DNA of 64,000 bases. It comes from Clostridia bacterium. Lineage in GTDB: Bacteria > Bacillota > Clostridia > Christensenellales > UBA1242. The position numbers and the translations under genes are program-made. The notes under the pieces were generated by a model that saw nothing but the letters and a program-made list of their open reading frames with translations, was not told the origin of the DNA and made no database searches. The first letter of the stretch is position 1. Each line of letters starts with the position of its first letter. The stretch is from assembly GCA_036654655.1 (NCBI GenBank), contig JAVVRP010000001.1, forward strand, positions 6,251 to 70,250, written 5' to 3'. Of the stretch, positions 2,111-55,948 are shown one piece after another.

Positions 2111-2114
<4 letters not shown>
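1098..2114 (+). CDS. hrcA: heat-inducible transcription repressor HrcA
   Basis: 338 aa. N-terminal winged-helix region (SERKHKLLVNAIEEHIKDASPITSGSVAEK...LSTATLRSELSALEEMGYL), first gene of an hrcA-grpE-dnaK-dnaJ order. Confidence 0.9.
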
Positions 2115-4589
<2,475 letters not shown>

Positions 4590-4597
4590 GGGACAAG

Positions 4598-23814: not shown

Positions 23815-24322
23815 ACACCTCCTTATATAAATTTTTTATTTGCTTTAAACAATTGTTATATTGCCAATTAATTGTTGAAATAGGTTTATTTAACATTTTT
23901 GCAACTTCAACTCGTTTATATCCATAAACAATGCAAAGTTCAATAATTTTCCAATCATCAGGCTTTAATTTGTTTTGGCAAAGGTTAAGCAGGGGCGTGC
24001 CATTTTGCGGAAGACTTTGAAATATATTTTCATAATCAGAAACATTCACGGAAGGTTTTTGGCTTTTAATTTTGTTAATAGCAGTGTTATGCGCAATTGT
24101 TAATAGATAAGAGTATGGATTTGATGTTAAATCTATTTTATGTAAATTTCGTAGAAATAACAAATAAGTATCTTGCATAACGTCTTCAATAAGCGAGCGG
24201 TCAAAGCATATTTTTTTGATGGTATAAAAAACACCTACTTTGGTTAAATCGTAAAATTCTTCAAAGTGTTTGTATGTATCTTGTTTAAGTTTTAATATGC
24301 AACTTTCAATAGAAGCGCTCAA
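23801..24322 (-). CDS. ECF-type sigma-70 family RNA polymerase sigma factor
   Basis: 173 aa with a region 2 (DVMQDTYLLFLRNLHKI) and a region 4 HTH (YGYKRVEVAKMLNKPISTINWQYNNCLKQIK). Confidence 0.8.
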   Translation of the reverse strand: MSASIESCILKLKQDTYKHFEEFYDLTKVGVFYTIKKICFDRSLIEDVMQDTYLLFLRNLHKIDLTSNPYSYLLTIAHNTAINKIKSQKPSVNVSDYENIFQSLPQNGTPLLNLCQNKLKPDDWKIIELCIVYGYKRVEVAKMLNKPISTINWQYNNCLKQIKNLYKEVYDEK

Positions 24323-28019: not shown

Positions 28020-30433
28020 AAATTGAAGAACTTCAAGAAAATCACCAGCCATACATATTAAAATCAATAGACGAAGTATTGCATGACTCCATGATTCCAT
28101 ACACAGAACATGTTGTTATGGAAAGGGCATTGCCCCGAGTTGAAGACGGTTTAAAGCCAGGGCAAAGACGTATTTTGTATTCCATGCTAGAACTTGGCCT
28201 TGGCAACGACAAAGCATACAGAAAGTCTGCCCGAATTGTTGGCGATTGTTTAGGTAAATATCATCCTCACGGAGATACCTCTGTTTATGAAGCAATGGTA
28301 AGAATGGCACAGCCGTTTTCTTTAAAAGAACCACTTGTAGATGGACAAGGTAATTTTGGCTCAGTAGATGGAGATACTGCTGCCGCAATGAGATACACAG
28401 AGGCAAAATTAACACCTCTTGCAATGGAACTTTTACGAGATTTAGATTGTGACACTGTTCCGTGGAGTTTAAATTTTGATGACACACTCAAAGAGCCGGA
28501 CATTCTTCCGGGGCGTTTCCCAAATTTATTGGTAAATGGTGCTTCGGGAATTGCAGTTGGCCTTGCAACAAATATTCCAACGCATAATTTAAGTGAAACA
28601 ATAAATGGGGTTGTTGCTTTTATTGATAATCCTCATATAACAATAGACCAAATGATGAAATTTATACCTGCGCCAGATTTTCCAACAGGTGGAATTATTA
28701 TTGCAGGAAATGAACTTAAAGACGCATATACAACAGGTAAAGGTAAAATTATAATAAGGGCAAGAGTAAGCATAGAAAAAAACGGGGACAAACAAAACAT
28801 AATTATTTCGGAACTTCCTTATCAAGTGAACAAGGCACTTTTGCTTCAAAAAATTGCAGAACTGAAAGAAGAAAACAAAGACAAACTAACTGGAATTGCA
28901 GAGATAAGGGACGAAAGTGATCGCAAGGGTATGCGTGCAATAATAAAGATTAAAAAAGAATGTAACGCAGAGGCAATTTTGGAGTATTTGTTTAAGGCAA
29001 CAAATATGCAAGTAAGTTTTGGAATAAACATGGTTGCAATTGCAGGCGGAAAACCTAAGCAAATGGGATTATTAGATATTATTGAATATTATGTTGAATA
29101 TCAACGTTGTGTTGTGTTAAGGCGTTCAAAATTTTTATTAGACAAGGCAAAAGATCGTGCACACATTATTGAAGGACTATTAATTGCAATACATAATATT
29201 GATGAAGTTGTAAAAACAATTAAAAAAAGTGAAAGTTATAATGACGCAAAAGCAAAATTGCGTGCAAAATTTTCACTTTCGGAAAAACAAGCACAAGCAA
29301 TTTTGGACATGAGGCTTGCAAGGCTTGTAAATCTTGAAACAACAAAGTTAGAAGAAGAGATGATAGAATTAACCCAGCAAATAAAAAAACTTAGTGAAAT
29401 TGTCAATAGCAAAAAAATGCAATATGAAACAGTTAAAACAGAATTGCTGGAAATTAAAAAAAAATATGGAATGCCACGCTTGTCCACACTGGTTATTAGC
29501 GATGGTGTTGCAAATTTACCAGAAATAAAGGAAGAAGAAGTTTTTGCAAAAGAAGTTTATGTTGCATTAACAATGGCAGGCACAATTAAAAAAATTCCGC
29601 AAAAAAATTATTTAATGAGCCAAAAAGAAATTACAGATGCAACAACATCAAATGAAATTCATACTCAACTGATTTTGGTAAAAACAAACGAAAAGGTTTT
29701 AATATTTACAAATCTTGGTAATTGCATAAAAATTGAAGTTGATGAGATTCCAGAAGCAAGGTGGAAGGATAAAGGCAAAGAACTTAAAAGCCTTGACAGG
29801 GGCATTTCCGCCGAGGAAGTTGGCGTTGCCATTTTTAAAGAAAATCAAGAGTTTTGTGATAAGTTTGTTTTTTTTACAAAATTAGGAATGATAAAATTAA
29901 GTGAATCAAGTGAATATTGTGTTAATAAAAGTGTTTTTCAAGCAATAAAAATTAAGCCAGAAGATGAACTTTTGGACGTTCAAAACTTTACGCCCGAAGG
30001 TGGAGTTTTAATGGTTTCAAAATCAGGAATGGCACTTAATTTTGAAAAAACAAACATTCCAATTCAAAACAGAATTTCAGGCGGAGTTATGGGCATAAAT
30101 TTAGAAAGTGATGACACGGTGATTTATGCATCTCAAACCGACAATGGAGGAGCCATCACCGTTGCAACAGATTATGGATACATTAAAAAAATTCCAATAG
30201 GAGAATATCCAGTAAGTGCAAGATATCGTAAAGGTTTAAAAATGTTTAATTTAAAAAATAATGGAACAAAACTAGTGTTTGCATCTTATGGCTCTTATAA
30301 ACCTATTGTTGGGTGGAATGGAAGTAAATTTGTGTGTATTGATGAATGTGATATAATGTATGATGACAGGGGCGGGAATGGCACACAACTTTTTGGTTCG
30401 CCAATTTCATCAGCAACAATGTTTTTTAATTAA
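28016..30433 (+). CDS. parC: type IIA DNA topoisomerase subunit A (ParC-like; no GyrA box)
   Basis: 805 aa. The TTG start overlaps the parE TGA. Catalytic region [11 protein letters not shown]. Where GyrA has QRRGGKG, this has [14 protein letters not shown], and a ParC-like [14 protein letters not shown] motif is present. Confidence 0.6.
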
Positions 30434-31430: not shown

Positions 31431-32069
31431 ATGAAAAACTGTGATGCAACAAATAATGTATTTCTTTCTGGAACAATAAAACAACCACCAATATTTAGCC
31501 ATGAAAGTTATGGAGAAGGCTTTTATGAGGTTATGGTGGAGGTTGCAAGGCTAAGTGAGCAAGTTGATTTGGTTCCGGTAACCGTTTCAGAAAAAATAAT
31601 GGGAAACAAATTTGAGGAAGGCAAAAACATATCAATCAAGGGACAGTTTAGATCATACAACAAAATTATTGATGGAAAAAGTAAACTTGTGTTAACGGTT
31701 TTTGTGCGTGAAATTTTGGATAATGACGAATCTTTAAATCCAAATATTGTGGAACTCAGCGGATTTATTTGCAAGCCACCAGTTTACAGAACAACTCCAT
31801 TTAATCGGGAAATATGTGATATTTTAATAGCGGTTAACAGGGCATACAACAAGTCTGATTATATACCTTGCATAACTTGGGGAAGAAACGCAAGATATGC
31901 ACGGGATGCCGAAATTGGAAGTTCAATTGAAATTGTTGGAAGAGTGCAAAGCCGTTCGTACCAAAAGCGGTTGGAAGATGGAAGTGTTGAGGATAGAATT
32001 GCATATGAAGTTTCTGTTGGCAAAATCTTTATCAAAAGCCAACAAGTAGAAGACGTTGTTCAACCATAA
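31431..32069 (+). CDS. SSB-like protein with two tandem OB folds and no acidic C-terminal tail
   Basis: 212 aa. Two similar halves (NNVFLSGTIKQPPIFSH...KGQFRSYNK... and NIVELSGFICKPPVYRT...VGRVQSRSYQKRLEDGSVEDRIAYEVSV). The second half matches the SSB OB-fold signature. Confidence 0.55.
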   Translation: MKNCDATNNVFLSGTIKQPPIFSHESYGEGFYEVMVEVARLSEQVDLVPVTVSEKIMGNKFEEGKNISIKGQFRSYNKIIDGKSKLVLTVFVREILDNDESLNPNIVELSGFICKPPVYRTTPFNREICDILIAVNRAYNKSDYIPCITWGRNARYARDAEIGSSIEIVGRVQSRSYQKRLEDGSVEDRIAYEVSVGKIFIKSQQVEDVVQP

Positions 32070-32120: not shown

Positions 32121-35100
32121 TTAGTTATCTTGTTTTTTTGTTTTTTTTGTTTCAAGTTTTTTTTTTAACTGTTCCTTAATTTCAAGTTTTGCTTTTTTGT
32201 TATTTTCTGCAACCATTTTGCGTTGAAGAGTAAGCAAATATTCATCTGTGTTCATATCCAAAACTGCGTTTTCAAGTTTTGTAAGTTTGTTAACAAGAAC
32301 AGTATGTTTGCTTGCATACAACTTAAATTGTTTTTCTGTGGAACGATCAACAACTCTGTTTCCTTTTTTTCTTTCATCTGCAAGACGTTTTGCATTTTCA
32401 TTTTCAAGTTCCACCATGGCAACTTTTATTTCTTCAATTTCAAGTTTTACTTTTTTAACTTGTTGATTTTTAAGATTTTCTGCTTCAATTCTTGCAACAT
32501 CACGATAAAGCGTTTTGTTTCGGTCATATTCATTTTGCTTTTTAATTTCCCATTTATGAAATTTAATTTTTCTTGTTACATATCCAACAAGAGCAATAAC
32601 AAGTGTAACGCTTAACAAAATGGATGGCACCAAAAGAAAACTAAACTGTGATTCTGTTGGGGTTGGTTTGTTGTCTGGTTCGTTTTCGTTTTCTGTAATG
32701 GTGGAGTTAACAAGTAAAACATTTTTATTTTCATTTGCTTCATTTTTTGTTCTTGCAGTGCTAAATGCTTTTTCATCAATTGTTTCAAATTTAATGTTGT
32801 CAAATGCAACAAGTCCACGTGCTTCACTTGAAAAAGAATTAAGTGCAAATCTTAAAGTGCAGGATGCTGTTTCTGTTGCCTTAATGTAAATGGTGTATGT
32901 TCCCCATTCGCTGTTGCATATTATGTTAGAAAGCAATGCTTTTTCAATTCCTATCAGACCAAATTCTGCGCCATAATCTGTTTTTTCTGGAACATCAAGT
33001 GATGATTTAAGTTTTGTTAAAACATCAACAGAAAGTTTATAATAATTATCTTTTGTTAAAGAAAGTTTGTCATTTGCAGAAATGGTGTAAAAACTTCTGC
33101 CAAATGTTTCAATACCAAGAAGGTTTTTTATTATACTTGTGTTGTTTGGGGATGCGGACAACCCGTAGGCATTGTTTCCAGACTGCAAAATACCTGCGCT
33201 TGCATTAGCGTTTGAACCTGCAAGAGCAGACATTGTGTAAGCAAAAGGTTTGTGAAAATTATAAACAATTTCACCCATTAAGTTTGTTTTAAAATTTGAA
33301 AAGTCAATAAAGCCGTTTGATGTGTTTTTAACGTAATCTGTGTATTCTGCTTCTGTCATTTTGCTTGTAGAAATTAAAACTTTGTCAATCCAAACATAGC
33401 CCTTAACTGGTTCTTTCAATGTTCCAAGAGCAAATTTAACCGTCATATTTTGGGTGGTTTCATCACTCCTTATAACAACGTTATGTTCTGCCCAATTAAG
33501 CGAGGAAAGTCCGTTTTGTGAAAATAACAAATTATTCAAACTGTCATAAACAAAAAAACTAAGTAACTTTGATTGATTAACATCATTTTGTGCGGTTTTA
33601 AAAAAGAAAGAGAGGTTGTGAAATGTTGAACCTGTAACAGAAAATGAAGAACTTGTAACATTTTGATATGCAAGTTCGTTGTTTCCCATAACAAGAACAT
33701 TTTCTACTTCACTGTTATTTGAACTTCCTGGGTTTCCATTTGGCAGGGTTGAATCATTTGATTTAACAACACCACTTATTGTGCTAAGTTTATCACTTGT
33801 TGCTTGTGTCCAAGATGTTGGAACAAGTGGATATTTTAATGTGTTTTCTGCTTTTTCTGCCGAGTTAAACAAGCCATTTTTTATGCTGGGTTCCGCGGTA
33901 AGGGTTGTTAGTTTAACTGTTTCTTCAACCCCGCCACTTGTGTGATTGTTTAATGTTGCAGTTGAAATTGTTTCAAGTGTAACATTATCAAAAAACACGG
34001 TTCCTGATGATGCGGTTGTTGCCTCTGCGTCTTTATACCCAAGCCATAAGCCAAGTTTTAAAGATGTGTCATATAAGTTATGCCCAGAAACATAAAATGA
34101 AATAGGAGTAAAATCATTTGTGAATTTATTTGTGTTATTGGAAGAAACCTGAATTTTTTTTACAACAGGTGTGTAAAAGTCTTTATCCATCTGGTTGTTT
34201 TTATAAAAATCTAAAATATCGTTATTTTCTGTAAGAACAACATACGCAGACCCAGATAAATCTGCAACCTTAACCCAAACGGTTATTTTTACATTTTCAA
34301 AACGTGGCAAATTTATATTTGTGCTTTCATAACCAAGTGCCACTTTTGTGTTTTTATCACTGTGAATAACAAGTGCATTTGAATTTGTTGTCTTTTTGTT
34401 GTTTGCAGGAAGAAGGTGGCTACCTTGCCATTTAATTCCATAAGAATTTAATGCTGATGCGGAACTAATGTCAACAACTCTTGAAATCCCGCCACTTGTG
34501 GAATTTGTTGTTTTGGTCCAAAAATTAAGCGAGTCCTCAAAGTCAAAATTTGCAACGGCAGGTGTGTGTTGTCTTAAATCTTTAAAAACAGCCAAAACTA
34601 AATCGGTCGGATATTTTACAGCCCTGTTTGATTCTGCTTCTTTGCTGTTTTGCCATACGTCACCAGAAATTTGAAAGGCCTTAACTTCGTCAAAAAAAAC
34701 AGCACCAATAGATTTTGTTCCTGCTTTTGAGCCAAGCCAAAGTTCAATATTAACGTTTTGTGACGTTTCACCTGTTGCTACAAAAAATTTAAGTTCTTGC
34801 CAGTTACCTTCTTTTTTAACAAGAGTAAACGAAAGTTCTTTGTCCATTCCAGTTAAATAAGCGGAGGCAACAGCGTCGTTTTGAGTTTTAACAAGAAATG
34901 AAACATAATAATAAGAGTATGCCGAAAAAGTTAAAGGTGAAGAAGTTGAGTACCCTTGCCTACGCTCACCAGTAAAATTGGTTTTTGTTTTTGAGTTTAA
35001 CATTAAAACAAAAGTATCAGTTGACATTGCTGGTTTTTCTGGATTTTCAGTCAAAAAATAGGTTTCTGCTTTGTTGGCGGAAAATTTTTCGGTGTCTATA

Positions 35101-35351
35101 TTAATAGCACCAGATGTTCCGCTATCTCCAATTTTTTTTGTCCAGTTAGAAGGGTTGTTAACAAAATTTGAATAACTAGAATTAAAACTCCCGTTGTTCA
35201 CAACAATTGGAGAAATAACTGAATTTGAAAAAGCCGTGCTTTCACAAATTGCAATGCCAGAATATGGAAGTATGAATAATGATAATAATGCCAAAATAAT
35301 TGATGCTGAAAGTTTTAAAAATTTGTTTTTTTTCATAGTTTGCTTGTCCAC
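32121..35351 (-). CDS. large surface protein (1076 aa): signal peptide, several CBM4/9-like beta-sandwich modules, C-terminal TM anchor and cytoplasmic coiled-coil tail
   Basis: N-terminal signal (LSASIILALLSLFILPYSG). Recurrent NGxF...NW/FW module starts (VVNNGSFNSS...NWTKK; VANFDFEDSLNFWTKT; IKNGLFNSAEK...SWTQA). TM helix FLLVPSILLSVTLVIALVGYV, then about 145 aa of K/E-rich heptad-like sequence. Confidence 0.7.
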   Translation of the reverse strand: MDKQTMKKNKFLKLSASIILALLSLFILPYSGIAICESTAFSNSVISPIVVNNGSFNSSYSNFVNNPSNWTKKIGDSGTSGAINIDTEKFSANKAETYFLTENPEKPAMSTDTFVLMLNSKTKTNFTGERRQGYSTSSPLTFSAYSYYYVSFLVKTQNDAVASAYLTGMDKELSFTLVKKEGNWQELKFFVATGETSQNVNIELWLGSKAGTKSIGAVFFDEVKAFQISGDVWQNSKEAESNRAVKYPTDLVLAVFKDLRQHTPAVANFDFEDSLNFWTKTTNSTSGGISRVVDISSASALNSYGIKWQGSHLLPANNKKTTNSNALVIHSDKNTKVALGYESTNINLPRFENVKITVWVKVADLSGSAYVVLTENNDILDFYKNNQMDKDFYTPVVKKIQVSSNNTNKFTNDFTPISFYVSGHNLYDTSLKLGLWLGYKDAEATTASSGTVFFDNVTLETISTATLNNHTSGGVEETVKLTTLTAEPSIKNGLFNSAEKAENTLKYPLVPTSWTQATSDKLSTISGVVKSNDSTLPNGNPGSSNNSEVENVLVMGNNELAYQNVTSSSFSVTGSTFHNLSFFFKTAQNDVNQSKLLSFFVYDSLNNLLFSQNGLSSLNWAEHNVVIRSDETTQNMTVKFALGTLKEPVKGYVWIDKVLISTSKMTEAEYTDYVKNTSNGFIDFSNFKTNLMGEIVYNFHKPFAYTMSALAGSNANASAGILQSGNNAYGLSASPNNTSIIKNLLGIETFGRSFYTISANDKLSLTKDNYYKLSVDVLTKLKSSLDVPEKTDYGAEFGLIGIEKALLSNIICNSEWGTYTIYIKATETASCTLRFALNSFSSEARGLVAFDNIKFETIDEKAFSTARTKNEANENKNVLLVNSTITENENEPDNKPTPTESQFSFLLVPSILLSVTLVIALVGYVTRKIKFHKWEIKKQNEYDRNKTLYRDVARIEAENLKNQQVKKVKLEIEEIKVAMVELENENAKRLADERKKGNRVVDRSTEKQFKLYASKHTVLVNKLTKLENAVLDMNTDEYLLTLQRKMVAENNKKAKLEIKEQLKKKLETKKTKKQDN

Positions 35352-36284: not shown

Positions 36285-38465
36285 ATGCAATTATTAATTA
36301 CGGCAAATCAAATAAACGAACAACTCGAAAAAATTTTTGAATTTAGTGCTTCATTATTTCAAGATGATGCAGAGTTTATATCTTCAAAAATTTCTGACGA
36401 GAAACTAAAACAAATGGTTTTAAACACAAAAGATTTAAACATAAGAAAACAAGGAATAGACGATTTGTGCGGGCTTGTATTCCAACTTAAAAATCCACTT
36501 TTTGCACTTGCTAATATGACAAAAATGATGCTAATAAGCAAAAACTTTGATGCTATTTTTAATTTTGTTTGCAGATTGTTTGTTAGCCATATTGGGCAAA
36601 CAAATTATCTTAGCCAAACACCAAACATAACAATAATAGAACGATATTTTGATCGTTTTGTTGAGATAATTAAAAATTGCGACATAAGCCCAGAAATGTT
36701 TATGCCATTAATTTTAGATATTTTTCGCAGTGATAAGGTGGGCGGGATTGTTGCATGGCGCAGACCATCCATTGAATTTCTGCAATCTTTTTGGGACAAA
36801 AATCAACAATGGACAATTGACTATTTATCCAAAAATAATGAACTGAAATACCAACTATTACTTGCAATCACAGAGTTTAACACATTAAAAGGTATTAATT
36901 TGCTTGTTCAAGATTTTTTAAATGGTGGTGATCAAGAAAATATTTTACATGTGCTTAAAAATTATAAACGTGAAACATTAATGGTAATTGATAAAGAACT
37001 TATGACTGCGGATGACCAAACAAGATTAAAATTAATTGAACTTATGTGTTTGTTTGACACAGATACAGAAGTTTTAACCCGTTTGCAAGAAATTTATTTA
37101 AAAGAAGTTTCCGAAGATATAAAAAGTTTGATTGCATCAAAAGTGGGAGTTACAAAAGTTTTACCTTTTAAAACAGAAAAACAGTTTCAATACATTGCAA
37201 AACGAAAAGTTAAAGAGCCACAAGAGCGTTCGTTAGGCATTGCATTTCAAAACTTGCCTTTGTTTTTTGAAAGCGGAATAGAAGCCACCAGTGTTGACAA
37301 AACAATGCTTATAACTTTGTTTAAAGATGAAAAACAACTTGTAAATTTGAGTAAATTAAAAATATTAAATACAATTTTTAATGTTGAGTCATTTTCTAAC
37401 TTTGCATTTAAGTTATTTGATACATTAACAAAAAAAGATGATATTAAGGAAGCAAAATGGTGCCTTAGGTTGGCGTCTGTGGCATGCGGTGGCAAACATA
37501 TGCAAACAATTTTGGACTTTGCAATTTTACTCTTTCAATGCAATCGTGCAAAAGAAGGTAAATATCTTTTACTTTGTTTAACACATTGTGCAAGAGACGA
37601 AGTTTTGGACATATTTAGGCGGTTGTCAGATATTAAAATGCAGGAGTTTTTAAACAACAAAAAAAGTTTTGTAGAATTGTTCTCGCAGTCTGCCAGCATA
37701 AGCCGTGACCTTGTTTTTGATAAGATTGCTAGTGAAAATTTTGACGACAAAATAATTAAAGAAGAAACAGAAAGGCTGTATTGGACTTTTATTGGTGGCA
37801 GAATGTATTTGCCCGAAGAATTTAATCAAATATTTTTAGCAAAAAGATTGTTTAATTATTTAGGACAAAAACTTGTTTTTGGCGAATATATTTTTGGAAG
37901 ATTACATTCTGCATTTATATTAGAAGGAAAAGAAAAAAAATATTTATACGGAAATGCAATTATAAACGAGAATCTTCAAATTTCAATAATTCACACACTA
38001 GATTTAAGTTTTAGACAAGAATTTTTAAAAGATGTTATTGCAAAACCACTTTTTGAGCAATTTCCAGAAAGCAGGTTTAATGTTAATGATTTTTCACGAT
38101 CTTCAATTTCTGTTGCAAGATTTGATGGCATGTTTGTTAATTTGCCTGAATTTACAAAAAAAATGATTTCATATGGTTTTGAAATTAACAAAAGGGACGA
38201 CCAAGCAGAATTTGAAAGTTTTGTTCACGATTTTAAGGGTGGAAATTTAATTGCAGAACTTTCTTTAAAGCACAGTGCAACAATAAACACAAAAACTGCA
38301 ACACTGGGCGCTGTGTATTTTGTTCGTGAATGTGACGTTTTGAACGATAATGGTGAATTTATAATATTAAAAACAAACGCAATTAGTGTTGGGGCATTGC
38401 CATACAGATACTTTGATTTTGTACTTTCAGCAATTTATAACGCATGTATTGCGGGTATAAATTAA
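36285..38465 (+). CDS. large cytoplasmic protein (726 aa), helical-repeat N-terminal region plus DUF4132-like C-terminal region (tentative)
   Basis: The C-terminal third (ERLYWTFIGGRMYLPEEFNQIFLAKRLFNYLGQKLVFGEY...ISIIHTLDL...KPLFEQFPESRF...) resembles my recollection of the DUF4132/MolR-type domain. Not verified. Confidence 0.4.
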   Translation: MQLLITANQINEQLEKIFEFSASLFQDDAEFISSKISDEKLKQMVLNTKDLNIRKQGIDDLCGLVFQLKNPLFALANMTKMMLISKNFDAIFNFVCRLFVSHIGQTNYLSQTPNITIIERYFDRFVEIIKNCDISPEMFMPLILDIFRSDKVGGIVAWRRPSIEFLQSFWDKNQQWTIDYLSKNNELKYQLLLAITEFNTLKGINLLVQDFLNGGDQENILHVLKNYKRETLMVIDKELMTADDQTRLKLIELMCLFDTDTEVLTRLQEIYLKEVSEDIKSLIASKVGVTKVLPFKTEKQFQYIAKRKVKEPQERSLGIAFQNLPLFFESGIEATSVDKTMLITLFKDEKQLVNLSKLKILNTIFNVESFSNFAFKLFDTLTKKDDIKEAKWCLRLASVACGGKHMQTILDFAILLFQCNRAKEGKYLLLCLTHCARDEVLDIFRRLSDIKMQEFLNNKKSFVELFSQSASISRDLVFDKIASENFDDKIIKEETERLYWTFIGGRMYLPEEFNQIFLAKRLFNYLGQKLVFGEYIFGRLHSAFILEGKEKKYLYGNAIINENLQISIIHTLDLSFRQEFLKDVIAKPLFEQFPESRFNVNDFSRSSISVARFDGMFVNLPEFTKKMISYGFEINKRDDQAEFESFVHDFKGGNLIAELSLKHSATINTKTATLGAVYFVRECDVLNDNGEFIILKTNAISVGALPYRYFDFVLSAIYNACIAGIN

Positions 38466-44235: not shown

Positions 44236-46161
44236 ATGTTAAAAAACATTGAAAGCAAATTTAACAAATATTTAAATTTGGTGTGCAAAGACAAAGATTT
44301 AATTTTATATTCGCAGTGTTTTTTTAATGATTTATGTAAAGAATTTAATGGAAAAGTTTTTACAAAAAGTGATTTTGAAACACAAGTTTATAAAGGGAAA
44401 ACATATATACAGGACAGTGTAAAGTCACTGTTTAAGTTTAAAAGAGAAAGAAAAATTGACGAAATTTTTTATTATCTTTTTAAAAATAATGTTAACGTCA
44501 TTGAATATTTTTTACCCGAGCCATATGAAAACACATCTGCAGATTATGCTTATTACCGCAAAACAATAAGAATTGCAAAAATTAACATGGAAGAATTAAT
44601 TCAAAGTATTTTGGCAGAAAAAGATTTTAAAACAGAAACATTAACAGAGGAGCAAATATATCAAAAAGCATTGGGAGTTGCAAACGAAGTTGCAAGTTTT
44701 GAAAATAAAGAAAATTTGTATCATGAATTAGGGCATGTTTTGGACTTTAAAAGATTTAAGCATAAAAGCATAATTAAACATAGTTTTCAAACTCATTTTG
44801 TTTTAAGAAATATATTCGAAGATTATAAAACTTGTGAAACTGAAAGTTTAAATAAAAATGCTGATAAAACAATAATGTCAAATAAAAAAGTACTTAATTT
44901 GGCAAAGATGCAGGTTAAAAGAATTCAATTAGAAGGTGAAAGTGCATTAGATGAAATTTCAAATGAAGTATTTGTAAACAAACTTAATAATTGTTTTATA
45001 ATTAATCATTTTCAAAATATATCTTTAAATCGTGAAAGTTTGTTTCAAGGTGTGATGGAAGGTAATTGTTCATATAATGAAGACATTGATATTTTAACTT
45101 TTTTAGAAATGGCGTCAAAAAAAACAAGAGTGAAAGACACGTTGTTTAATTCTCATTTAATTATTAATGAACTAAATGGCAAAAATTTTGTTTCAAAATT
45201 GCCAATGTATAAAAAAAAGATAATAGAAGAAATTTCAAAAGATGTAATTATCAAAAAAAATGATTTTGAATTTTTTGAATGTGAAAAACTTATTAAAAAC
45301 TTTTCTATTTTTGACACAATAACTTTTGCAATGGGAGTGGTTAAGTTATTTAGACAAAGTTGCAAAAATAGTTGTGATAAAATAAAAATTAATGAAATAC
45401 AGTTAAAAGAGGAAATAAAAACTAAAACGAATAAAAATTTATATTTAACTACTTTATTAAAAGATGGCAATGGAAAAATTAAGGAATTAAAATTTAAAAA
45501 TAAAAAATTGGCAGAAGAAGTTGAATTGAGCAAAAAAATCCAGTTAAATTTTAAAAAAATTTTAAAAGAAATGTTTTTAGAAATTATTAAAGAAAATATG
45601 CTTAAAGAAATTAATGATTCAAAAACAATTAAGGATGAAAAATATTTTGTAGAGTTAAATAATAAACTTGAAAACATTAATACTTTTATTGGGTATGATT
45701 TTGAAATTGAATACAAAAATTATTATAATTTTGATACCAAAGAGGGCAATTTAAATTTAGTTTTGTTAAATGATAAAACTGTTGAAAATTATGCAACAGA
45801 AAAACCAAACGAAAATTTATATCAGTTATTTAATGAAATTGTAAAACTTGCTGAAAACGAAGTGATAACCCATTCGTCAAATGCAAAAGATTTTATTCCA
45901 ACAATGACATTTTTGTTAAAACAAATTAAATTAAAACAAAAATTAAAAACAAGAGAAACTTTAACAAAAATGGAATTAAATTATTTGGATAGTCAAAGCA
46001 AGTTAAACAATAATTACAACAATTTAAATAACCAACAAGAACTGGAAATGCAAGAGGAAATTAACAGGCGAAAAAAAATTTATCAACAATATTTGCAAGT
46101 GCATAACATAAAAGTTCACAACAAAAATGTTAATCAAAAATCGCAAGAAATTAATTTATAA
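44236..46161 (+). CDS. large K/N/E-rich hypothetical protein (641 aa) with a single HExxH motif
   Basis: Long uninterrupted ORF with a LYHELGHVLDF zincin-like motif around residue 163. The remainder is low-complexity helical. It appears to be the most AT-rich coding region of the window by eye. Confidence 0.55.
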   Translation: MLKNIESKFNKYLNLVCKDKDLILYSQCFFNDLCKEFNGKVFTKSDFETQVYKGKTYIQDSVKSLFKFKRERKIDEIFYYLFKNNVNVIEYFLPEPYENTSADYAYYRKTIRIAKINMEELIQSILAEKDFKTETLTEEQIYQKALGVANEVASFENKENLYHELGHVLDFKRFKHKSIIKHSFQTHFVLRNIFEDYKTCETESLNKNADKTIMSNKKVLNLAKMQVKRIQLEGESALDEISNEVFVNKLNNCFIINHFQNISLNRESLFQGVMEGNCSYNEDIDILTFLEMASKKTRVKDTLFNSHLIINELNGKNFVSKLPMYKKKIIEEISKDVIIKKNDFEFFECEKLIKNFSIFDTITFAMGVVKLFRQSCKNSCDKIKINEIQLKEEIKTKTNKNLYLTTLLKDGNGKIKELKFKNKKLAEEVELSKKIQLNFKKILKEMFLEIIKENMLKEINDSKTIKDEKYFVELNNKLENINTFIGYDFEIEYKNYYNFDTKEGNLNLVLLNDKTVENYATEKPNENLYQLFNEIVKLAENEVITHSSNAKDFIPTMTFLLKQIKLKQKLKTRETLTKMELNYLDSQSKLNNNYNNLNNQQELEMQEEINRRKKIYQQYLQVHNIKVHNKNVNQKSQEINL

Positions 46162-46166
46162 AACTG

Positions 46167-47864
46167 TTATTTTTCAACTGAATTTTTTTTTGGAGAATAT
46201 GTCGGTTTTATTTTACTGTGGAAAAACTTTTTATTGCCAGTCGTGCTTTTTGTCCCAATTGTTTTTTTCTTTTCAAAAGAAAAATTTTTATCGGCAAATT
46301 TTTGTTTGCCGTTAAATCTGGAAGTTTCTTTAAATTCACTTTTTGGTGCATAACTTCTTTTTTCTCCAAATTTTGAACGAGATAAGTTTTGGTCTTGAAA
46401 AGAATCTTTTGTTTTATCATAAGACGATTTAGAATATGTTGTTTTTTTGTCCGTATAACTTTTATTTAATTTTTCGTTTATTTTTAAGGCATATCTTGGT
46501 GAAGAATGTGCTTTACTTGCATAATGAACTTCTGCACTTTTTGTTGCCAATTCATTATTAAAAGATTTTCCAAGTGGTTTGCTATTTGTTCTTTTTGATA
46601 TATTAAAATTTTGTGATTTGCCTTGGTGCGACCCAGTAAAGTTATTTTTAAAAGATGGTGCAGAAAAATTTTTTTTTCTTTCACCAGAAAAACTTACACC
46701 CCTAGAACTTTTCTCATTCAAAAAATTTGTTTCTTGCAAATATTTATCTTGCGCTGTGTCCCCATTAAGCAATATTTGATTAATTGTTGCTTTTGTTTCT
46801 TTTTCAATTAAAGCAAGTTGTTTAATTTGCATTCTTGTTGTAACAAAAGAAATTGCCACTCCTGTTAACCCCGCACGCCCAGTTCTGCCAATGCGGTGAA
46901 TGTAATATTCAACATCTTTTGGAATGTCATAATTAAAAATTATATCAACATTTTTAACATCAATTCCACGTGCAGCAACGTCAGTTGCCACCAAGTAATT
47001 AACTTTTCCAGATTTAAGTTCTTGCATTGCTTTTTGTCTGGCACTTTGCCTCATATCTCCATGAAGAGAAACAGCCTTTAACCCGTTTAAAACAAGCATA
47101 TCTGTAACATCGTCAACCATTTTCTTTGTGTTGCAAAAAATAATTGAAGTTGTTGGTTTCATATCTAAACATAATTGAATAAGAGCGTCTTTCTTTTCAT
47201 GAAAAACAAACGACTGTTTAATTAATTTTGTTGTTTCATTTTTATTTCCAACTTCAATAAGAATTGGATTTTTCATAAATTCGTTTGTTATTTTTAAAAT
47301 TGGAGCGGGTAGTGTTGCAGAAAACATAACAGTTTGTCGTTCTGGATTAACTTTTGCTAAAATTGTTTCAATGTCTTCTTTAAAACCCATGTTTAACATT
47401 TCATCTGCTTCATCAAGAACAGCCATTTTTAAAAAGTCCATTTTAAGGGTGCGTCTTCGCAAGTGATCCATAATCCTTCCCGGTGTGCCAACAACAATTT
47501 TTGCACCATTTTTAAGCGCCATTTTTTGCCTGTCCATGCTGTTGCCACCAAAAATAGGAACAACCTTGCAAGATTCTTTAAAAGCAGTTATTTTTTTAAA
47601 TTCTTCACATACTTGAATTGCAAGTTCGCGTGTTGGGCAAACCACAAGTACCTGAACGCAACTTCGTGTGGTGTCAACTTTTTCTATTGCTGGAATTGCA
47701 TATGCAATGGTTTTTCCACTTCCAGTTTGTGATTTTCCAATAACGTCTTTGCCTTCCATTATAAGAGGTAAACATTTTGATTGAATTTCAGTGGCTTCTT
47801 CAAACCCCTGCTTTGCAACTGCGTCTATTATGTATTGTGGTAAATTAAGTTCGGTAAATTTCAT
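46167..47864 (-). CDS. DEAD-box ATP-dependent RNA helicase (CshA-like) with a long basic S/K-rich C-terminal tail
   Basis: Q-motif (GFEEATEIQ), Walker A SQTGSGKT, DEAD (VLDEADEM), SAT, HRIGRTGRAG, followed by about 190 aa of K/S/N-rich tail. Confidence 0.93.
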   Translation of the reverse strand: MKFTELNLPQYIIDAVAKQGFEEATEIQSKCLPLIMEGKDVIGKSQTGSGKTIAYAIPAIEKVDTTRSCVQVLVVCPTRELAIQVCEEFKKITAFKESCKVVPIFGGNSMDRQKMALKNGAKIVVGTPGRIMDHLRRRTLKMDFLKMAVLDEADEMLNMGFKEDIETILAKVNPERQTVMFSATLPAPILKITNEFMKNPILIEVGNKNETTKLIKQSFVFHEKKDALIQLCLDMKPTTSIIFCNTKKMVDDVTDMLVLNGLKAVSLHGDMRQSARQKAMQELKSGKVNYLVATDVAARGIDVKNVDIIFNYDIPKDVEYYIHRIGRTGRAGLTGVAISFVTTRMQIKQLALIEKETKATINQILLNGDTAQDKYLQETNFLNEKSSRGVSFSGERKKNFSAPSFKNNFTGSHQGKSQNFNISKRTNSKPLGKSFNNELATKSAEVHYASKAHSSPRYALKINEKLNKSYTDKKTTYSKSSYDKTKDSFQDQNLSRSKFGEKRSYAPKSEFKETSRFNGKQKFADKNFSFEKKKTIGTKSTTGNKKFFHSKIKPTYSPKKNSVEK

Positions 47865-48851: not shown

Positions 48852-48996
48852 ATTAGTTTTAACAACTTGTTTTGCACATATTCCCACACAAGTTTTGGAG
48901 TTGGGGTTAAAATATATTGTTTATTTTCTAGTTTTTTTACAAAAAGGTTTTGCGTTTGCGACAAATTCTGCTATAATAATCAAAAGGAGGCAAGAA

Positions 48997-50142
48997 ATGG
49001 AAAAGGAAAAATATTTGAATGGAATGTTGGATAATGTTGGGATTTATGAACTAAGAGAACTTGCCCGACGTGTTGGGGTTGCTTCACCAACCACAAAAAC
49101 AAGAAACGTTTTGGTTGAAGAAATAGAAAAAGTTTTAAATGGAGAACAGCCAAAACCATTGCATGTTGTAAGTTCTGCAAGCACAGGCAGACCTCCTAAA
49201 AAAATGGAAGATTTTGATGCGTTGTTTGATTTAATTGTTCCAAAGGCAATTAGAGATATGGCTCCTCAAATTCAAGAATCGGCAACTTTTACATTTGGAA
49301 GTGATGATGAAAGCACAAGGCCACAAAACAAAACAGTTTCGGGTGTGTGCAGAATAATTGAAGGAGCAGTGTATTTTCATGATACATCAACTTTAAGTAG
49401 CCCAAGAGTTGTTTCTGCACCTTCGCAGGTGGTGGAATTGTATAATCTTGAAGAGGGTGACAGAATTGTTGGCGAGGCAAAAGTTTTGCGTGGCAGAGGG
49501 TTTTGTGTACTTACAGATATATTTTCAATAAATAACAACTTAAAACTTGAAAACAGAAAAAAAATTGATTTTAGTGCTATTGTTAAAAGCAATGAAATAA
49601 TTAATATTGCTGCTCAAAAAGTAAACGAGGGAACAAGGGCTGTGTTTTATTCTCCAAGTACAACAGAATTTGCTCAAAAACTTGCAAAGGAGTTATGCTC
49701 ACTTAAAAATCAAGGATATGTTCCAATTTTGCTTGCAACAAATGTTTCACCAGAAAATCTGAGCGCCCTGCGTTCTGCTCTTTCGGATACAAGTTTTATA
49801 ACGCAATATGAAGACACTCTTTTTGTGTGCGAACAAAACATAACAGATGCAATAATAAGTGCAAAAGCATTGGCAAGAAGTGGCAAAAAAGTTGTTTTTG
49901 TGGCTTTTGAACTGGAACAGATTGTGCAGTCCTTAAACCTATATCATGCGTCAAATGGTGCTCATTTTTTTCAGGGGCACACAATAAAAGCAATAGAAAC
50001 TGTTAAGGCAATGTTTTCTCTTGCAAGGTGTTTGGATAATGGCGGAAGCATAACAACAGTTGTTTCGTGCTCAACCCCGCTTCGTGATGATGTGTTAAAA
50101 ACAGAATTAGAAAAACTTTCTTTTAAAATGTTTAACTTTTAA
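48997..50142 (+). CDS. Rho-homologous protein with degenerate Walker A/B motifs and truncated C-terminus (381 aa)
   Basis: AAAGGAGG RBS, then ATG 48997 (the track ORF extends spuriously to 48769). Rho_N-like IYELRELARRVGV..., Rho RNA-binding-like VSAPSQVVELYNLEEGDRIVGEA, and a RecA-like core colinear with Rho but with SPSTTEF in place of PPKAGKT. Confidence 0.6.
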   Translation: MEKEKYLNGMLDNVGIYELRELARRVGVASPTTKTRNVLVEEIEKVLNGEQPKPLHVVSSASTGRPPKKMEDFDALFDLIVPKAIRDMAPQIQESATFTFGSDDESTRPQNKTVSGVCRIIEGAVYFHDTSTLSSPRVVSAPSQVVELYNLEEGDRIVGEAKVLRGRGFCVLTDIFSINNNLKLENRKKIDFSAIVKSNEIINIAAQKVNEGTRAVFYSPSTTEFAQKLAKELCSLKNQGYVPILLATNVSPENLSALRSALSDTSFITQYEDTLFVCEQNITDAIISAKALARSGKKVVFVAFELEQIVQSLNLYHASNGAHFFQGHTIKAIETVKAMFSLARCLDNGGSITTVVSCSTPLRDDVLKTELEKLSFKMFNF

Positions 50143-53945: not shown

Positions 53946-55679
53946 ATGACATTAGCACAGTTTTTTAACAATCTGGGTTTATCAAAACAGCAAGTGGAAT
54001 ATGTTTTGCAATCACACTATAACTCATTTAATGCTAATGTTGAAACATTGCAAAAAAAGGTTGAATTTTATAAAAAAACATTTAATCTTACAAATGAAGA
54101 ATTTAACAAAATTTTTGTAAGTTTGCCTGCTTTGCTTAATCGTGCGGAGTCCACAGTTTTATTAATTATAAAATTTTATAAAGAAAAACTAAAAATAACT
54201 GATGCAGAATTTAACAAGATGTTTATTTTGTATCCATCTTTGTTAACACATTCAAAAGAAGGGCTAGAAAATAAACTTATTTTTTATAAAAATCAGTTTG
54301 AATTAAACGAAGCCCAACTCCAAAAATTAATAGTTGGTTTTCCAAACTTATTAAATTATGCTATAAATGGAGTTGTTGAAAAAATCTTATTTTATAAAAA
54401 TCTTTTAAATTTATCTATAAAAGAAGTTAATAATTTACTTGTTTTAAACACAAGGCTAATTGGATTTTCGCAAGAAAGTGTATTAAATAAAATAGATTTT
54501 TATAAAAAAACATTTAATTTAAATAATGACCAATTTAAAAAAATATTAACAGTCCAACCAGCCCTTCTTAATTATGCAGAAGAAAGCATACAAGGAAAAG
54601 TTAATTTTTATAAATCAACATACAAAATAAATGATGAGGAATTTAAAAAAGTTTTTTTAGCCCAACCAGCCATACTTGGGTACGCAGAATGTTCGGTTTT
54701 AGAAAAAAATGCCACATACAAAAAACTTTTTTGCTTGAATGATAAGGATTTAAAAAAAATATTTTTAATTTTGCCATCAATTTTATGTTTTTCTAATGAG
54801 GGACTTAATGAAAAATACAAACTTATTGCAAATTTAATAAATTTGAGCGAGCAAGAACTAGCAAAAATTTTTACAAACCAGCCAACAATAATTTGCCACT
54901 CAAATCAAAGTATTGTTAACAAAATTAAATTTTATAAAAGCACATTTAAAATGAGTGACCAGCAATTTAAACATGCATTTGTTTCTCAGCCATCAATTAT
55001 TAGTTTTGCAGAAAAAAGCGTATTGCAAAAAGCGGACTTTTACACAAAAATTTTTATGCTAAGCGAAAATGAATTAATAAATGCCATTGTAACTCAACCA
55101 GGACTTTTATGTTTTGCTGAGGAAAGCGTAAAAGCAAAAATCAAACTTTATGCGGAAACATTTGGGCTAAGCGAAAAGGAAATAAAAAAAGTTTTTTTAC
55201 AAATGCCAACCATGTTATGTTTGGCAGAAAAAAGCGTGATTGCAAAAAAGAAAGCATTAGACGAAGTTGGAATTACAAAAAAAGAAATTGTTGATAATTT
55301 TGTTATGATTGTAACGCCATCAAATAAATTGAAAATAAGGTTTATGTTATTAGCAAGTAATTTTGGGCGAGAGCAGGTTATTGATTCGAAAAGATGGTTT
55401 ATGACAGGCGAGCAAAAGGTTTACGCAAGGTTGTTTTTTTTAAAAGAAAACAACAAAAAATTTACCTTGACGCAGTTGTTGTATGATGAAAAACGCTTTA
55501 TCTCAAAGTACAAAATTTCAAATGACGAACTTGTTAAAAAATATCCAATAACCAATTGTTCATTAAAGGAAATAGAGCAAGGCTACAAACAAAAATTTGC
55601 AGGTTCTGCAATAAGTTTAAATGATTATGTTTTAGAAGACAAAATGGAGAATGAAAAATGTCAAGCGTTGAATTTATAA
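53946..55679 (+). CDS. mTERF-like repeat protein (11 tandem 36-aa helical repeats)
   Basis: The ORF is open from 53853. ATG 53946 (MTLAQFF...) is favoured because a TTGTAT-17-TGcTATACT promoter ends near 53872; ATG 53883 is the alternative. Repeat consensus: (V/I)xFYKxxFxLxxxEFxKxFxxxPxLLxYAExSVxxK. Confidence 0.7.
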   Translation: MTLAQFFNNLGLSKQQVEYVLQSHYNSFNANVETLQKKVEFYKKTFNLTNEEFNKIFVSLPALLNRAESTVLLIIKFYKEKLKITDAEFNKMFILYPSLLTHSKEGLENKLIFYKNQFELNEAQLQKLIVGFPNLLNYAINGVVEKILFYKNLLNLSIKEVNNLLVLNTRLIGFSQESVLNKIDFYKKTFNLNNDQFKKILTVQPALLNYAEESIQGKVNFYKSTYKINDEEFKKVFLAQPAILGYAECSVLEKNATYKKLFCLNDKDLKKIFLILPSILCFSNEGLNEKYKLIANLINLSEQELAKIFTNQPTIICHSNQSIVNKIKFYKSTFKMSDQQFKHAFVSQPSIISFAEKSVLQKADFYTKIFMLSENELINAIVTQPGLLCFAEESVKAKIKLYAETFGLSEKEIKKVFLQMPTMLCLAEKSVIAKKKALDEVGITKKEIVDNFVMIVTPSNKLKIRFMLLASNFGREQVIDSKRWFMTGEQKVYARLFFLKENNKKFTLTQLLYDEKRFISKYKISNDELVKKYPITNCSLKEIEQGYKQKFAGSAISLNDYVLEDKMENEKCQALNL

Positions 55680-55948
55680 AAAACACTTTTGGAATTGATA
55701 ACGAAACCATAATGAATATGATTAATATTTGTGAAGGGATTTTAATTATCGATAAAGATAGAATTTTGCAAAATGCTAAAACATTAATTGAATTTGGCTA
55801 TCCCAAAAATGAACTTGGCATGCTTTTTTCAGTTAATCCTGCTGTTTTGTGCTATGATTACAAAGAATTAACTGCAAAACTTAAACAAGTGATAAAAAAT
55901 AATAATAATTTAGAAGAATTGTTAAAAAATAATCCTTTTTTAATATAA
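55658..55948 (+). CDS. small mTERF-like protein (96 aa, about two repeat units)
   Basis: GGAGAA RBS. The start overlaps the upstream stop by 22 nt. It contains VEFIKNTFGIDNETIMNMINICEGILIIDKDRILQNAKTLIEFGYPKNELGMLFSVNPAVLCYDYKELTAKLK. Confidence 0.6.
   Translation: MSSVEFIKNTFGIDNETIMNMINICEGILIIDKDRILQNAKTLIEFGYPKNELGMLFSVNPAVLCYDYKELTAKLKQVIKNNNNLEELLKNNPFLI

Follow-up and report, generated by a model that had tools for sequence, protein, structure and literature searches.

The DNA analysed, referred to here as the window, is a 64-kb stretch from a Clostridia bacterium, and on its forward strand it carries a CDS (48997..50142, stop included) that runs from an ATG at 48997 to a stop codon at 50140-50142 and encodes a 381-amino-acid, motor-less Rho-like protein. 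The start point is shared by the homologues, and the same 381-residue protein was recovered from three independent assemblies (the NCBI MAG GCA_036653055.1 and two Logan runs). A frameshift or assembly error, which the sequence-only reading of this DNA had listed as an objection to its own proposal, is therefore excluded. The gene context is dut - rho-like - ppdK, and since the gap between the stop of the rho-like gene and the next gene is only 88 nt, there is no C-terminal remnant downstream of the open reading frame. The encoded protein is not basic (pI 6.3).

A ribosome-binding site, AAAAGGAGG (48982..48990, forward strand), was read directly from the sequence, with GGAGG at 48986-48990 spaced 6 nt from the ATG. 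A candidate sigma-A promoter (48950..48977, forward strand) consists of TTGCGT at 48950-48955, a 16-nt spacer and the extended -10 element TGcTATAAT at 48969-48977. All of these signals had been described before and all are present, but the -35 box is weak, matching the consensus at only three of six positions, and for this reason the promoter was not listed by the consensus scan. Relatives of the gene carry near-perfect TTGACA-17-TATAAT boxes located 18-19 nt from the ATG, as in the window gene, and this equal distance supports the promoter call. The gene may be transcribed from its own vegetative sigma-A-type promoter.

The relationship of the product to transcription termination factor Rho was studied by sequence, profile and predicted fold. 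The NCBIfam Rho equivalogs matched the window protein with E values of 1.6e-11 and 5.6e-11, colinear across residues 12-357, at scores of 43.6 bits (cut-off 315) and 42 bits (cut-off 509) against TIGR00767 and NF006886, which lie below the equivalog thresholds. Rho chains in the PDB were matched at E 3e-5 with the single sequence and at E 5e-26 with a profile of the family, and hhalign comparison of the rho-like family with canonical Rho gave a probability of 100% (E 9e-44) over 355 columns. An AlphaFold model based on an alignment of 107 sequences reached a pLDDT of 89.4 and a pTM of 0.86, and was used in place of a model from a 3-sequence alignment, for which the pLDDT was only 56. When the model was compared with the PDB using Foldseek, the top 50 matches were all Rho (best E 6.6e-17). 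A tblastn search with a clostridial Rho (P0225) also matched the window gene (E 2.9e-11), while E. coli Rho as query gave no match in the window or in the loci, the target gene included, this query being too distant. The product is thus a genuine Rho homologue, and the homology first proposed by eye has statistical support. E. coli residue numbers given below follow what we take to be the Rho sequence of that organism, and are consistent with the PDB alignments.

The most conserved part of the family is the Rho N-terminal helix-hairpin signature, GIYELRELARRVGVASPTTKTRNVLVEEI, at residues 15-43 (49039..49125, forward strand). Among the first 50 columns of the family alignment 13 are conserved at 80% or above; R20 is invariant, and conservation reaches 90% or more at G15, L19, A23, R24, G27, P31, T32, L39 and I43. 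Residues 12-47 aligned to the Rho N-terminal domain (NTD) in the NCBIfam, PDB-profile and hhalign comparisons, and the region forms three helices in the AlphaFold model. The NTD is followed by an insertion, located before the OB fold, that carries an AT-hook-like basic motif, GRPPKK (residues 64-69; 49186..49203, forward strand), in which, across 107 sequences, G64 and R65 never vary and conservation is 90% or more at P66 and K68. The GRPPK motif is common to the rho-like family and to an intact, GRPPK-type clostridial Rho.

The OB-fold equivalent of the Rho RNA-binding domain, which holds the primary site, occupies residues 111-180 (49327..49536, forward strand) and is partly degraded. Its beta strands are present in the AlphaFold model, and G154 and D155 are nearly invariant in the family. 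The helix-hairpin recognized from the sequence is borne out by the NCBIfam, PDB-profile and hhalign alignments of the NTD. In Pfam no Rho_N match was reported in the window protein, and Rho_RNA_bind (PF07497) scored below the cut-off (E 0.0066 over residues 116-180). At the primary site the window protein retains F64 (as Y) and Y110 (as F), while Y80 is replaced by V, R66 by H, E108 by R and F62 by A. In the family as a whole (n = 139) position 64 is F or Y in 93 sequences and position 80 is F or Y in 95. Since Y80 and R66, two of the key RNA-stacking or contact residues of this site, are lost, RNA binding by the window protein is not assured.

The motor elements of the RecA-like core were then located by alignment. 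When PDB Rho was aligned with HMMER, only a vestige of the Walker A region was seen, EGTRAVFYSPSTTEF (residues 211-225; 49627..49671, forward strand), which is without Gly-Lys-Thr and three residues shorter: GQRGLIVAPPKAGKT of Rho lies opposite GTRAVFYSPS---TTEF, so that the P-loop PKAGKT of Rho corresponds to SPS---TTEF and no P-loop exists. P-loops were called by alignment together with a GK[ST] scan, the pattern [AG]xxxxGK[ST] being one that misses the SPPKAGKT of intact clostridial Rho. GK[ST] was absent from the Walker A position in all 207 family proteins examined, and every alignment agrees, so the Walker A loss noticed earlier is genuine and not a mis-alignment. The segment ILLATNVSPEN (residues 244-254; 49726..49758, forward strand) is the equivalent of LLIDERPEE, with DERPE of Rho aligned to TNVSPE and with the catalytic Glu211 and the Arg-valve residue Arg212 replaced by Val-Ser. 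This segment had been taken for Walker B; a motif is indeed lost there, but LLIDERPEEV is the catalytic-Glu/Arg-valve segment, and the true Walker B strand of Rho is VIILLD265 (KDVIILLDSITRL), whose Asp is also lost. The equivalent strand is KKVVFVAFELEQI (residues 297-309; 49885..49923, forward strand), in which VIILLD265 aligns with VVFVAF(E) and LLDS with AFEL, such that Asp265 has become Phe and a Glu follows one position later.

The Q- and R-loops of Rho fared no better. The Q-loop position, part of the secondary RNA-binding site, is occupied by HASNGAHFFQGHT (residues 317-329; 49945..49983, forward strand), and is not conserved, the family columns being mostly gaps or variable. The R-loop position is occupied by STPLRDDV (residues 359-366; 50071..50094, forward strand). 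The columns of both loops are gapped or unconserved, and neither T286 nor K326 has an equivalent. The protein ends with the strand FKMFNF and the stop codon (50122..50142, forward strand; strand 377-380 in the model), at the point that corresponds to NMELHL of E. coli Rho (around residue 349). The C-terminal truncation described from the sequence alone is therefore real: some 70-75 residues of Rho are missing, and these include the Arg finger R366. Loss of the motifs was seen in every alignment, for the window protein and for 139 full-length relatives. Because Walker A, the catalytic Glu and Arg valve, Walker B, the loops, the Arg finger and the C terminus are all gone, the protein should be unable to work as a translocase powered by ATP. 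With these motifs missing, it would neither bind nor hydrolyse ATP in the manner of Rho, nor would it translocate on RNA.

A survey of relatives, as had been suggested, demonstrated that the degenerate form is widespread: the window protein is no isolated case but one member of a large family without a name. The family is defined as proteins of ~350-395 residues that combine the N-terminal signature GI[YF]ELRxLARxxGVxSPT, a GRPxK insertion and an OB fold with a RecA-like core from which Walker A is absent. This architecture was found in at least 150 clusters (50% identity). The family profile matched the window protein best (E 1.4e-178), and all signature columns are present in it. Starting from the single sequence, a word-indexed protein search had returned only two relatives, and with a profile it gave 16 proteins, the query's own members included; an exhaustive profile search returned 1274 representatives at E<=1e-3, while 96 reached E<=1e-30. 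The best 150 family matches were all without a P-loop and mostly 350-395 residues in length. No Pfam or NCBIfam model and no family name was found, and the sole named member is a 'hypothetical protein'. A literature search for a described P-loop-less Rho found none; Moreira et al. 2024 mention 'Rho-like' sequences, in a supplement only. A JGI metagenome scan for related loci also found none. The hosts are uncultured, low-GC, endospore-forming gut Clostridia, and the window genome is itself that of a spore-former, as SpoIVA scored E 1.7e-103. An origin from a mobile element was rejected because PHROG, phage and plasmid matches were all absent.

Selection on the family was quantified from pairs of loci. 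The rho-like genes of L012 and L013 differ by dN 0.045 and dS 1.02 (omega 0.045), while for the neighbour genes of the same pair omega was 0.056 (ypeB) and 0.025 (sleB); the rho-like genes of L006 and L011 gave an omega of 0.04. By domain, pN/pS came to 0.13 in the NTD, 0.15 in the linker and 0.29 in the RecA-like domain, all of them constrained, and the NTD had the lowest pN. The family is under purifying selection (dN/dS about 0.04), which acts most strongly on the NTD and on the linker that holds GRPPK, and the view that the gene looks expressed rather than decayed stands, as far as sequence comparison of the relatives can tell.

The best canonical match was a GRPPK-type Rho for 191 of 192 degenerate members. 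Intact Rho proteins of this type (P0216-P0234) have the sequence SPPKAGKT and share the NTD and the GRPPK motif with the rho-like family; one of them is named 'transcription termination factor Rho' by NCBI. A graded series leads from these intact proteins to P0144 and P0139, in which Walker A is broken and DERPE, Walker B and the C terminus are retained, then to P0081 and P0085, and finally to the truncated forms. Canonical rho was found in the contexts spoIIR-sleB-ypeB-prs-MBL-rho and prs-x-MBL-rho-fba-MTS-rsmI. The P0144 gene lies directly after prs. In 11 loci, where the YpeB proteins are only ~34% identical, sleB-ypeB is immediately followed by a degenerate gene, and one degenerate gene follows MTS-rsmI. 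The window copy lies outside the conserved sleB-ypeB and prs contexts. The gene had been described as a Rho paralogue or orthologue. Its homology is confirmed, and the shared neighbourhoods and graded intermediates point to the lineage's own rho as its ancestor more than to a side paralogue. The rho-like family thus probably derives from the GRPPK-type clostridial rho itself by stepwise decay. In such a scheme the loss of Walker A would have come first, that of the remaining catalytic motifs and the RNA-translocation motifs next, and that of the C terminus last; the decay would have taken place at the original chromosomal position, and the window genome would later have been rearranged to dut - rho-like - ppdK.

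Several known systems bear comparison with this protein. Canonical Rho (TIGR00767 / NF006886; PDB 1PV4, 3ICE) has the same colinear order of Rho_N helix-hairpin, OB fold and RecA-like core, whereas the rho-like protein is without Walker A, catalytic Glu/Arg valve, Walker B Asp, Q-loop, R-loop, Arg finger and ~75 C-terminal residues. Closest are the GRPPK-insertion Rho proteins of uncultured Clostridia, with the same NTD signature, insertion and chromosomal neighbourhoods. The short-form Rho paralogue (Group B / Type 4; NF041509, paralog_Rho2) is likewise a shortened Rho relative, of ~360 residues, in which the N-terminal domain is absent but both the catalytic residues and the pocket for bicyclomycin are retained (PMC11347177). 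The rho-like protein is its opposite, having kept the NTD as its most conserved part and lost the catalytic residues, and NF041509 matched the window protein at only 29.9 bits, against a cut-off of 628, over residues 285-357. Plant RHON1 and the cyanobacterial DUF4912 proteins also have a Rho N-terminal domain in the absence of a working Rho ATPase, but they have neither an OB fold nor a RecA-like domain, both of which are present here; DUF4912 had no match in the window protein. In the ATP-synt_ab superfamily, the V/A-ATPase B subunit and F1 alpha have a RecA-type ring-ATPase fold in which a degenerate or non-catalytic nucleotide site is kept under selection. These subunits function only beside a catalytic paralogue in a hetero-hexamer, whereas the synteny of the rho-like genes points to replacement of the only rho.

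The same arrangement could be imagined here, with the window protein as a dead protomer, a non-catalytic subunit or regulator that co-assembles with a canonical Rho encoded elsewhere in the genome, in the way that V-ATPase B subunits, which have no P-loop, are paired with catalytic A subunits. Having neither P-loop nor Arg finger, it would poison termination or tune it. Rho obligately forms a ring, the RecA-like core of the rho-like protein is kept and constrained, its NTD and GRPPK signature is common to intact clostridial Rho, and where a species has two rho genes, hetero-hexamers have been proposed (PMC11347177). We consider such a mixed ring unlikely, however, as the decayed forms fill canonical rho slots, for which in-place decay of the only copy is a simpler account, and no second rho was found within +/-10 kb of any distinct locus or in the 64-kb window. 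The loss of ~75 C-terminal residues and a RecA-domain identity of 20-25% also make the fit of the interface doubtful, and 30% of Bacillota are already known to be without functional Rho.

A role in the spore is more improbable still. The Rho scaffold might have been recruited for sporulation or germination, as a nucleic-acid-binding protein tied to the sleB-ypeB germination genes, and the window genome is, as noted, a spore-former's; the order veg-sipL-spoIIR-sleB-ypeB-[rho-like] is kept in 11 loci despite the low YpeB identity (~34%) and inversions of neighbours. Intact rho of the same lineage already adjoins sleB-ypeB, however, which makes the linkage an inherited one that is not peculiar to the dead form, and the linkage is gone in the window, in L006/L011 and in L018. 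The genes have their own sigma-A-type TTGACA-17-TATAAT promoter and not one for a sporulation sigma factor. Given this promoter and the equal linkage of intact rho, membership of a sporulation operon was downgraded. As for a functionless, decaying pseudogene or an assembly or annotation artefact, the disappearance of every catalytic motif and of the C terminus speaks in its favour, but the reading frame is uninterrupted and the same in three assemblies, equal length is shared by more than 150 diverged clusters, omega is about 0.04 as in the neighbour genes, the NTD and GRPPK residues are invariant, the predicted fold is confident, the ribosome-binding site is strong and the promoters are conserved. 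This explanation is refuted by purifying selection and the breadth of the family, and can be given almost no credence.

The best joint explanation, and one we hold to be probable, is that the gene is a catalytically dead, C-terminally truncated descendant of Rho, decayed in place and retained for an ATP-independent role. The motor is wholly lost and the gene is nevertheless under selection, so a new, ATP-free job is most likely. The NTD-GRPPK-OB module might bind nucleic acid and/or RNA polymerase independently of ATP, and the dead RecA-like domain could be a scaffold, possibly for oligomerization. More tentatively, at somewhat under an even chance, a whole radiation of spore-forming gut Clostridia may have turned its only rho into a motor-less protein that is kept for an ATP-independent function of the NTD, GRPPK motif and OB fold, such as the binding of RNA polymerase or nascent RNA.

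Rho is the textbook example of a ring-shaped RNA translocase, and to our knowledge all of its known roles (termination, R-loop removal, silencing) need ATP-driven movement. That a large family under selection has the Rho fold and the NTD module, while the motor is gone from it, implies that the Rho scaffold has a second activity which does not depend on the motor, and in the rho-like family nature provides a separation-of-function mutant with which to look for it. A functional Rho is reported to be absent from about 30% of Bacillota (PMC11347177), and the graded series offers one concrete route to Rho loss, through Walker A first, then the other catalytic sites with the RNA loops, and last the C terminus. 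The series further suggests that a Rho derivative under constraint persists in some of the genomes counted as "Rho-less". At present the rho-like genes are annotated as hypothetical and their intact-looking relatives as Rho, two errors that a family model of their own would avoid. If the conversion of an only rho proposed above is correct, the graded intermediates would record it step by step, and these bacteria would live without Rho-dependent termination yet still need 'Rho'.

The relationship of the 381-aa product of the open frame at 48997-50142 (+) to transcription termination factor Rho was studied using profile, structural and pairwise comparisons. Both NCBIfam Rho equivalog models matched the protein colinearly (E 1.6e-11 and 5.6e-11), with residues 12-357 falling on model positions 7-315; at 42-44 bits the matches stay well short of the 315 and 509 bits set as curated cut-offs. 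Pfam returned Rho_RNA_bind only, below threshold at E 0.0066. Against PDB Rho chains, the protein alone gave E 3e-5 and a profile built from 107 relatives 5e-26; hhalign comparison of this profile with 18 intact Rho sequences gave a probability of 100% (E 9e-44, 355 columns). An AlphaFold model built from the 107-sequence alignment was confident (pLDDT 89.4, pTM 0.86), and its best 50 Foldseek matches in the PDB were all Rho (best E 6.6e-17). The homology with Rho proposed earlier is upheld by sequence, profile and fold. The chain comprises a three-helix Rho_N-type N-terminal domain (NTD; residues 1-47), an insertion (48-110) carrying GRPPKK at 64-69, an OB fold (111-180), a connector (181-205) and a RecA-like core (206-381).

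Motif losses were concordant across every alignment made. Residue numbers follow E. coli Rho and are consistent with the PDB alignments. In the Walker A region, GQRGLIVAPPKAGKT is aligned with GTRAVFYSPS---TTEF; the P-loop is gone, as had been claimed, and the loop has lost three residues. Alignment of LLIDERPEE with LLATNVSPE places the loss of catalytic Glu211 and Arg-valve Arg212 in a segment previously mislabelled Walker B; the true Walker B (VIILLDS, here VFVAFEL) has also lost its Asp265. The Q-loop and R-loop positions are gapped or unconserved. The chain ends at the NMELHL-equivalent strand and is therefore without Arg-finger R366 and about 70-75 residues, in agreement with the C-terminal truncation first seen by eye. 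At the primary RNA site, F64 is kept as Y and Y110 as F, and Y80, R66 and E108 are lost; across the family, roughly two in three members have an aromatic residue at the F64 position, and likewise at Y80. Together with the model, the alignments show the Rho fold without any element for ATP binding or hydrolysis, for central-channel RNA grip, or for completion of a neighbour's active site. A frameshift or a sequencing or assembly error as the cause was ruled out, since NCBI MAG GCA_036653055.1 encodes the identical protein, as do two independent Logan assemblies.

A mechanical ORF list extended the frame to a TTG at 48769. All homologues start 10-18 residues ahead of a conserved GI[YF]ELR motif, which supports the ATG start, and the upstream sequence AAAAGGAGG places GGAGG 6 nt ahead of this ATG. 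A candidate promoter, TTGCGT-16 nt-TGcTATAAT, was read at 48950-48977 (+). The ribosome-binding site and extended -10 box described earlier are thus both present; the -35 box is weak (3/6 matches), and for that reason the promoter was absent from the consensus scan output. In orthologues the boxes are close to perfect (TTGACA-17-TATAAT) and again lie 18-19 nt from the start codon, which argues that the family has in common a sigma-A-type promoter followed by a very short leader. No intrinsic terminator was found between the gene and upstream dut or downstream ppdK.

An exhaustive HMMER search over 1.84 billion representatives returned 1274 proteins at E<=1e-3, of which 96 reached E<=1e-30; the best 150 are mostly 350-395 aa long. 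By a GK[ST] scan and alignment, 0/207 family proteins have a Walker A motif at the expected position. The family has no model in Pfam or NCBIfam, the Rho model is reached at E<=1e-3 by only 62/107 members, and the sole source-named member is a "hypothetical protein [Eubacteriales bacterium]". The window gene is representative of a large unannotated family, not an accident. Genome matches come from MAGs of uncultured Clostridia, Candidatus Caccopulliclostridium gallistercoris among them, and no phage, plasmid or PHROG matches were found. The window genome (31.5% G+C) encodes SpoIVA (13021-14493 (+), E 1.7e-103), and the organism is therefore an endospore-forming Clostridia-type bacterium; a YtxC-like protein (10390-11133 (+)) and an M50 peptidase (11165-12007 (+)) lie nearby.

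In the least-saturated orthologue pair (loci L012/L013, 93% identical), dN was 0.045, dS 1.02 and omega 0.045, with 0.056 and 0.025 for the adjacent ypeB and sleB; a second rho-like pair (L006/L011) gave 0.04. Selection is purifying in both pairs, and the pseudogene reading is refuted. Mean pN/pS was 0.13 in the NTD, 0.15 in the GRPPK linker, 0.28 in the OB fold, 0.39 in the connector and 0.29 in the RecA-like part. Among 107 sequences, 13 of the first 50 columns were at least 80% conserved and 2 in the 176-residue RecA-like part; R20, G64 and R65 were invariant. Judged by these substitution patterns, the Rho-like protein is functional and under purifying selection, and its N-terminal module matters most.

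A search with P0144, the most Rho-like member, led to a clostridial Rho group (P0216-P0234, 486-520 aa) that is intact in SPPKAGKT, DERPE, Walker B, Arg finger and C-terminus, and that has an N-terminal signature and GRPPK insertion equal to those of the degenerate family. No description of this insertion in an otherwise canonical Rho was found in the literature. All but one of 192 degenerate proteins (191/192) had their best match in GRPPK-type Rho, ahead of all 99 other canonical Rho sequences compared. A graded series connects intact Rho with the window form: P0144 and P0139, with Walker A alone broken (SPKTDTA, QDKFKKI), still match E. coli Rho at 1e-66 and 1e-64; P0081, P0085 and P0123 show further losses and retain a C-terminal region; and the 350-395-aa forms, including the window protein, end at the NMELHL strand.

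Intact genes occupy the orders spoIIR(-)-sleB-ypeB-prs-MBL-rho (P0225) and prs-x-MBL-rho-fba(-)-MTS-rsmI (P0229). The run prs - MBL-fold hydrolase - rho is conserved for intact GRPPK-type rho (L021/L022, 4979-11521; L023/L024, 7672-14203), in one lineage directly after spoIIR-sleB-ypeB. The P0144 gene directly follows prs, degenerate genes directly follow sleB-ypeB at L004/5, L007-10, L012-13, L014, L015 and L016/17, and one more lies between MTS-rsmI and ftsH. Between the genomes with the sleB-ypeB linkage, YpeB identity is only ~34%, and the orientation of veg and spoIIR has flipped. The context is rearranged in the window (dut - rho-like - ppdK) and at L006/L011 (macB - x - rho-like - lgt). 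The decayed forms thus sit in slots of intact rho, which speaks for decay in place of the gene native to the lineage rather than for a side paralogue. Neither the 64-kb window nor the +/-10 kb around the gene at any locus contained a second Rho-like sequence.

Other neighbours were also recorded. Giant genes flank the rho-like gene at L007-L010, L012, L013 (downstream), L014 and L015; the product at L007-L010 and L012 has a signal peptide and >3300 aa and is still running where the locus ends (L008, for example, about 11170 onwards), and those at L014 (11469-18935 (-)) and L015 (11451-18725 (-)) have 2424-2488 aa on the opposite strand. In the window, a DEAD-box RNA helicase gene (46167-47864 (-)), divergent from dut and the rho-like gene, encodes a Lys/Ser/Asn-rich C-terminal tail of about 230 aa; in assembly L001 (10 Ns) it is called as 455 aa + 124 aa. 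Two adjacent mTERF-repeat genes (PF02536; 53853-55679 (+), E 2.5e-39 with four stretches, and 55658-55948 (+), E 3e-8) follow the dead Rho gene at a distance of only 3.7 kb in this bacterial genome; the mTERF family is known chiefly from mitochondria and plastids. An SSB-domain protein (31431-32069 (+)) has its fold at residues 105-196 only, preceded by about 100 aa of N-terminal extension. Pfam gave no match for three large ORFs at 32121-35351 (-), 36285-38465 (+) and 44236-46161 (+), of 1076, 726 and 641 aa, the last Lys/Asn/Glu-rich. Housekeeping loci are hrcA-grpE-dnaK-dnaJ (1098-5701 (+)), a gyrB/gyrA-type pair (26052-30433 (+)), pyruvate:ferredoxin oxidoreductase (14540-17809 (-)) and a sigma factor with RsgI-like anti-sigma (22828-24322 (-)).

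Homology, motif loss and purifying selection support the earlier proposal of a candidate pseudo-ATPase Rho that looks expressed rather than decayed. The favoured interpretation is that it acts independently of ATP through the NTD-GRPPK-OB module. The Rho NTD class consists of helix-extended-helix binders of nucleic acid and protein, and the NTD touches RNA polymerase in published Rho-polymerase complexes; the most economical guess is therefore that the window protein binds polymerase or RNA and that its dead RecA-like domain serves as a scaffold. The GRPPK motif is presumably comparable to an AT-hook core. Note, however, that the protein is not basic (pI 6.3) and its primary site is partly degraded, both of which speak against simple nucleic-acid binding. 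Less probably, it would serve as the non-catalytic partner, or the poison, of a canonical Rho encoded elsewhere in the genome. A spore-linked function, suggested by gene position, is weakened by the equal linkage of intact rho to spore genes and by the vegetative-type promoter.

Six defining features of canonical Rho were tested and not found in the window protein, which is thus not a member. Nor is it a Rho_N-only protein (RHON1, DUF4912) or a short-form Rho (Group B/Type 4, NF041509), which lacks the NTD and retains the catalytic residues (PMC11347177). Moreira et al. 2024 counted as "Rho-like", in 421 species, sequences with one domain or with NTD plus RNA-binding domain, and cultured relatives of the family may be tallied there; the literature search returned no description of the P-loop-less family or its graded decay, the "Rho-like" detail of that study being confined to its supplement. 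The window gene is a selected, motor-less Rho derivative.
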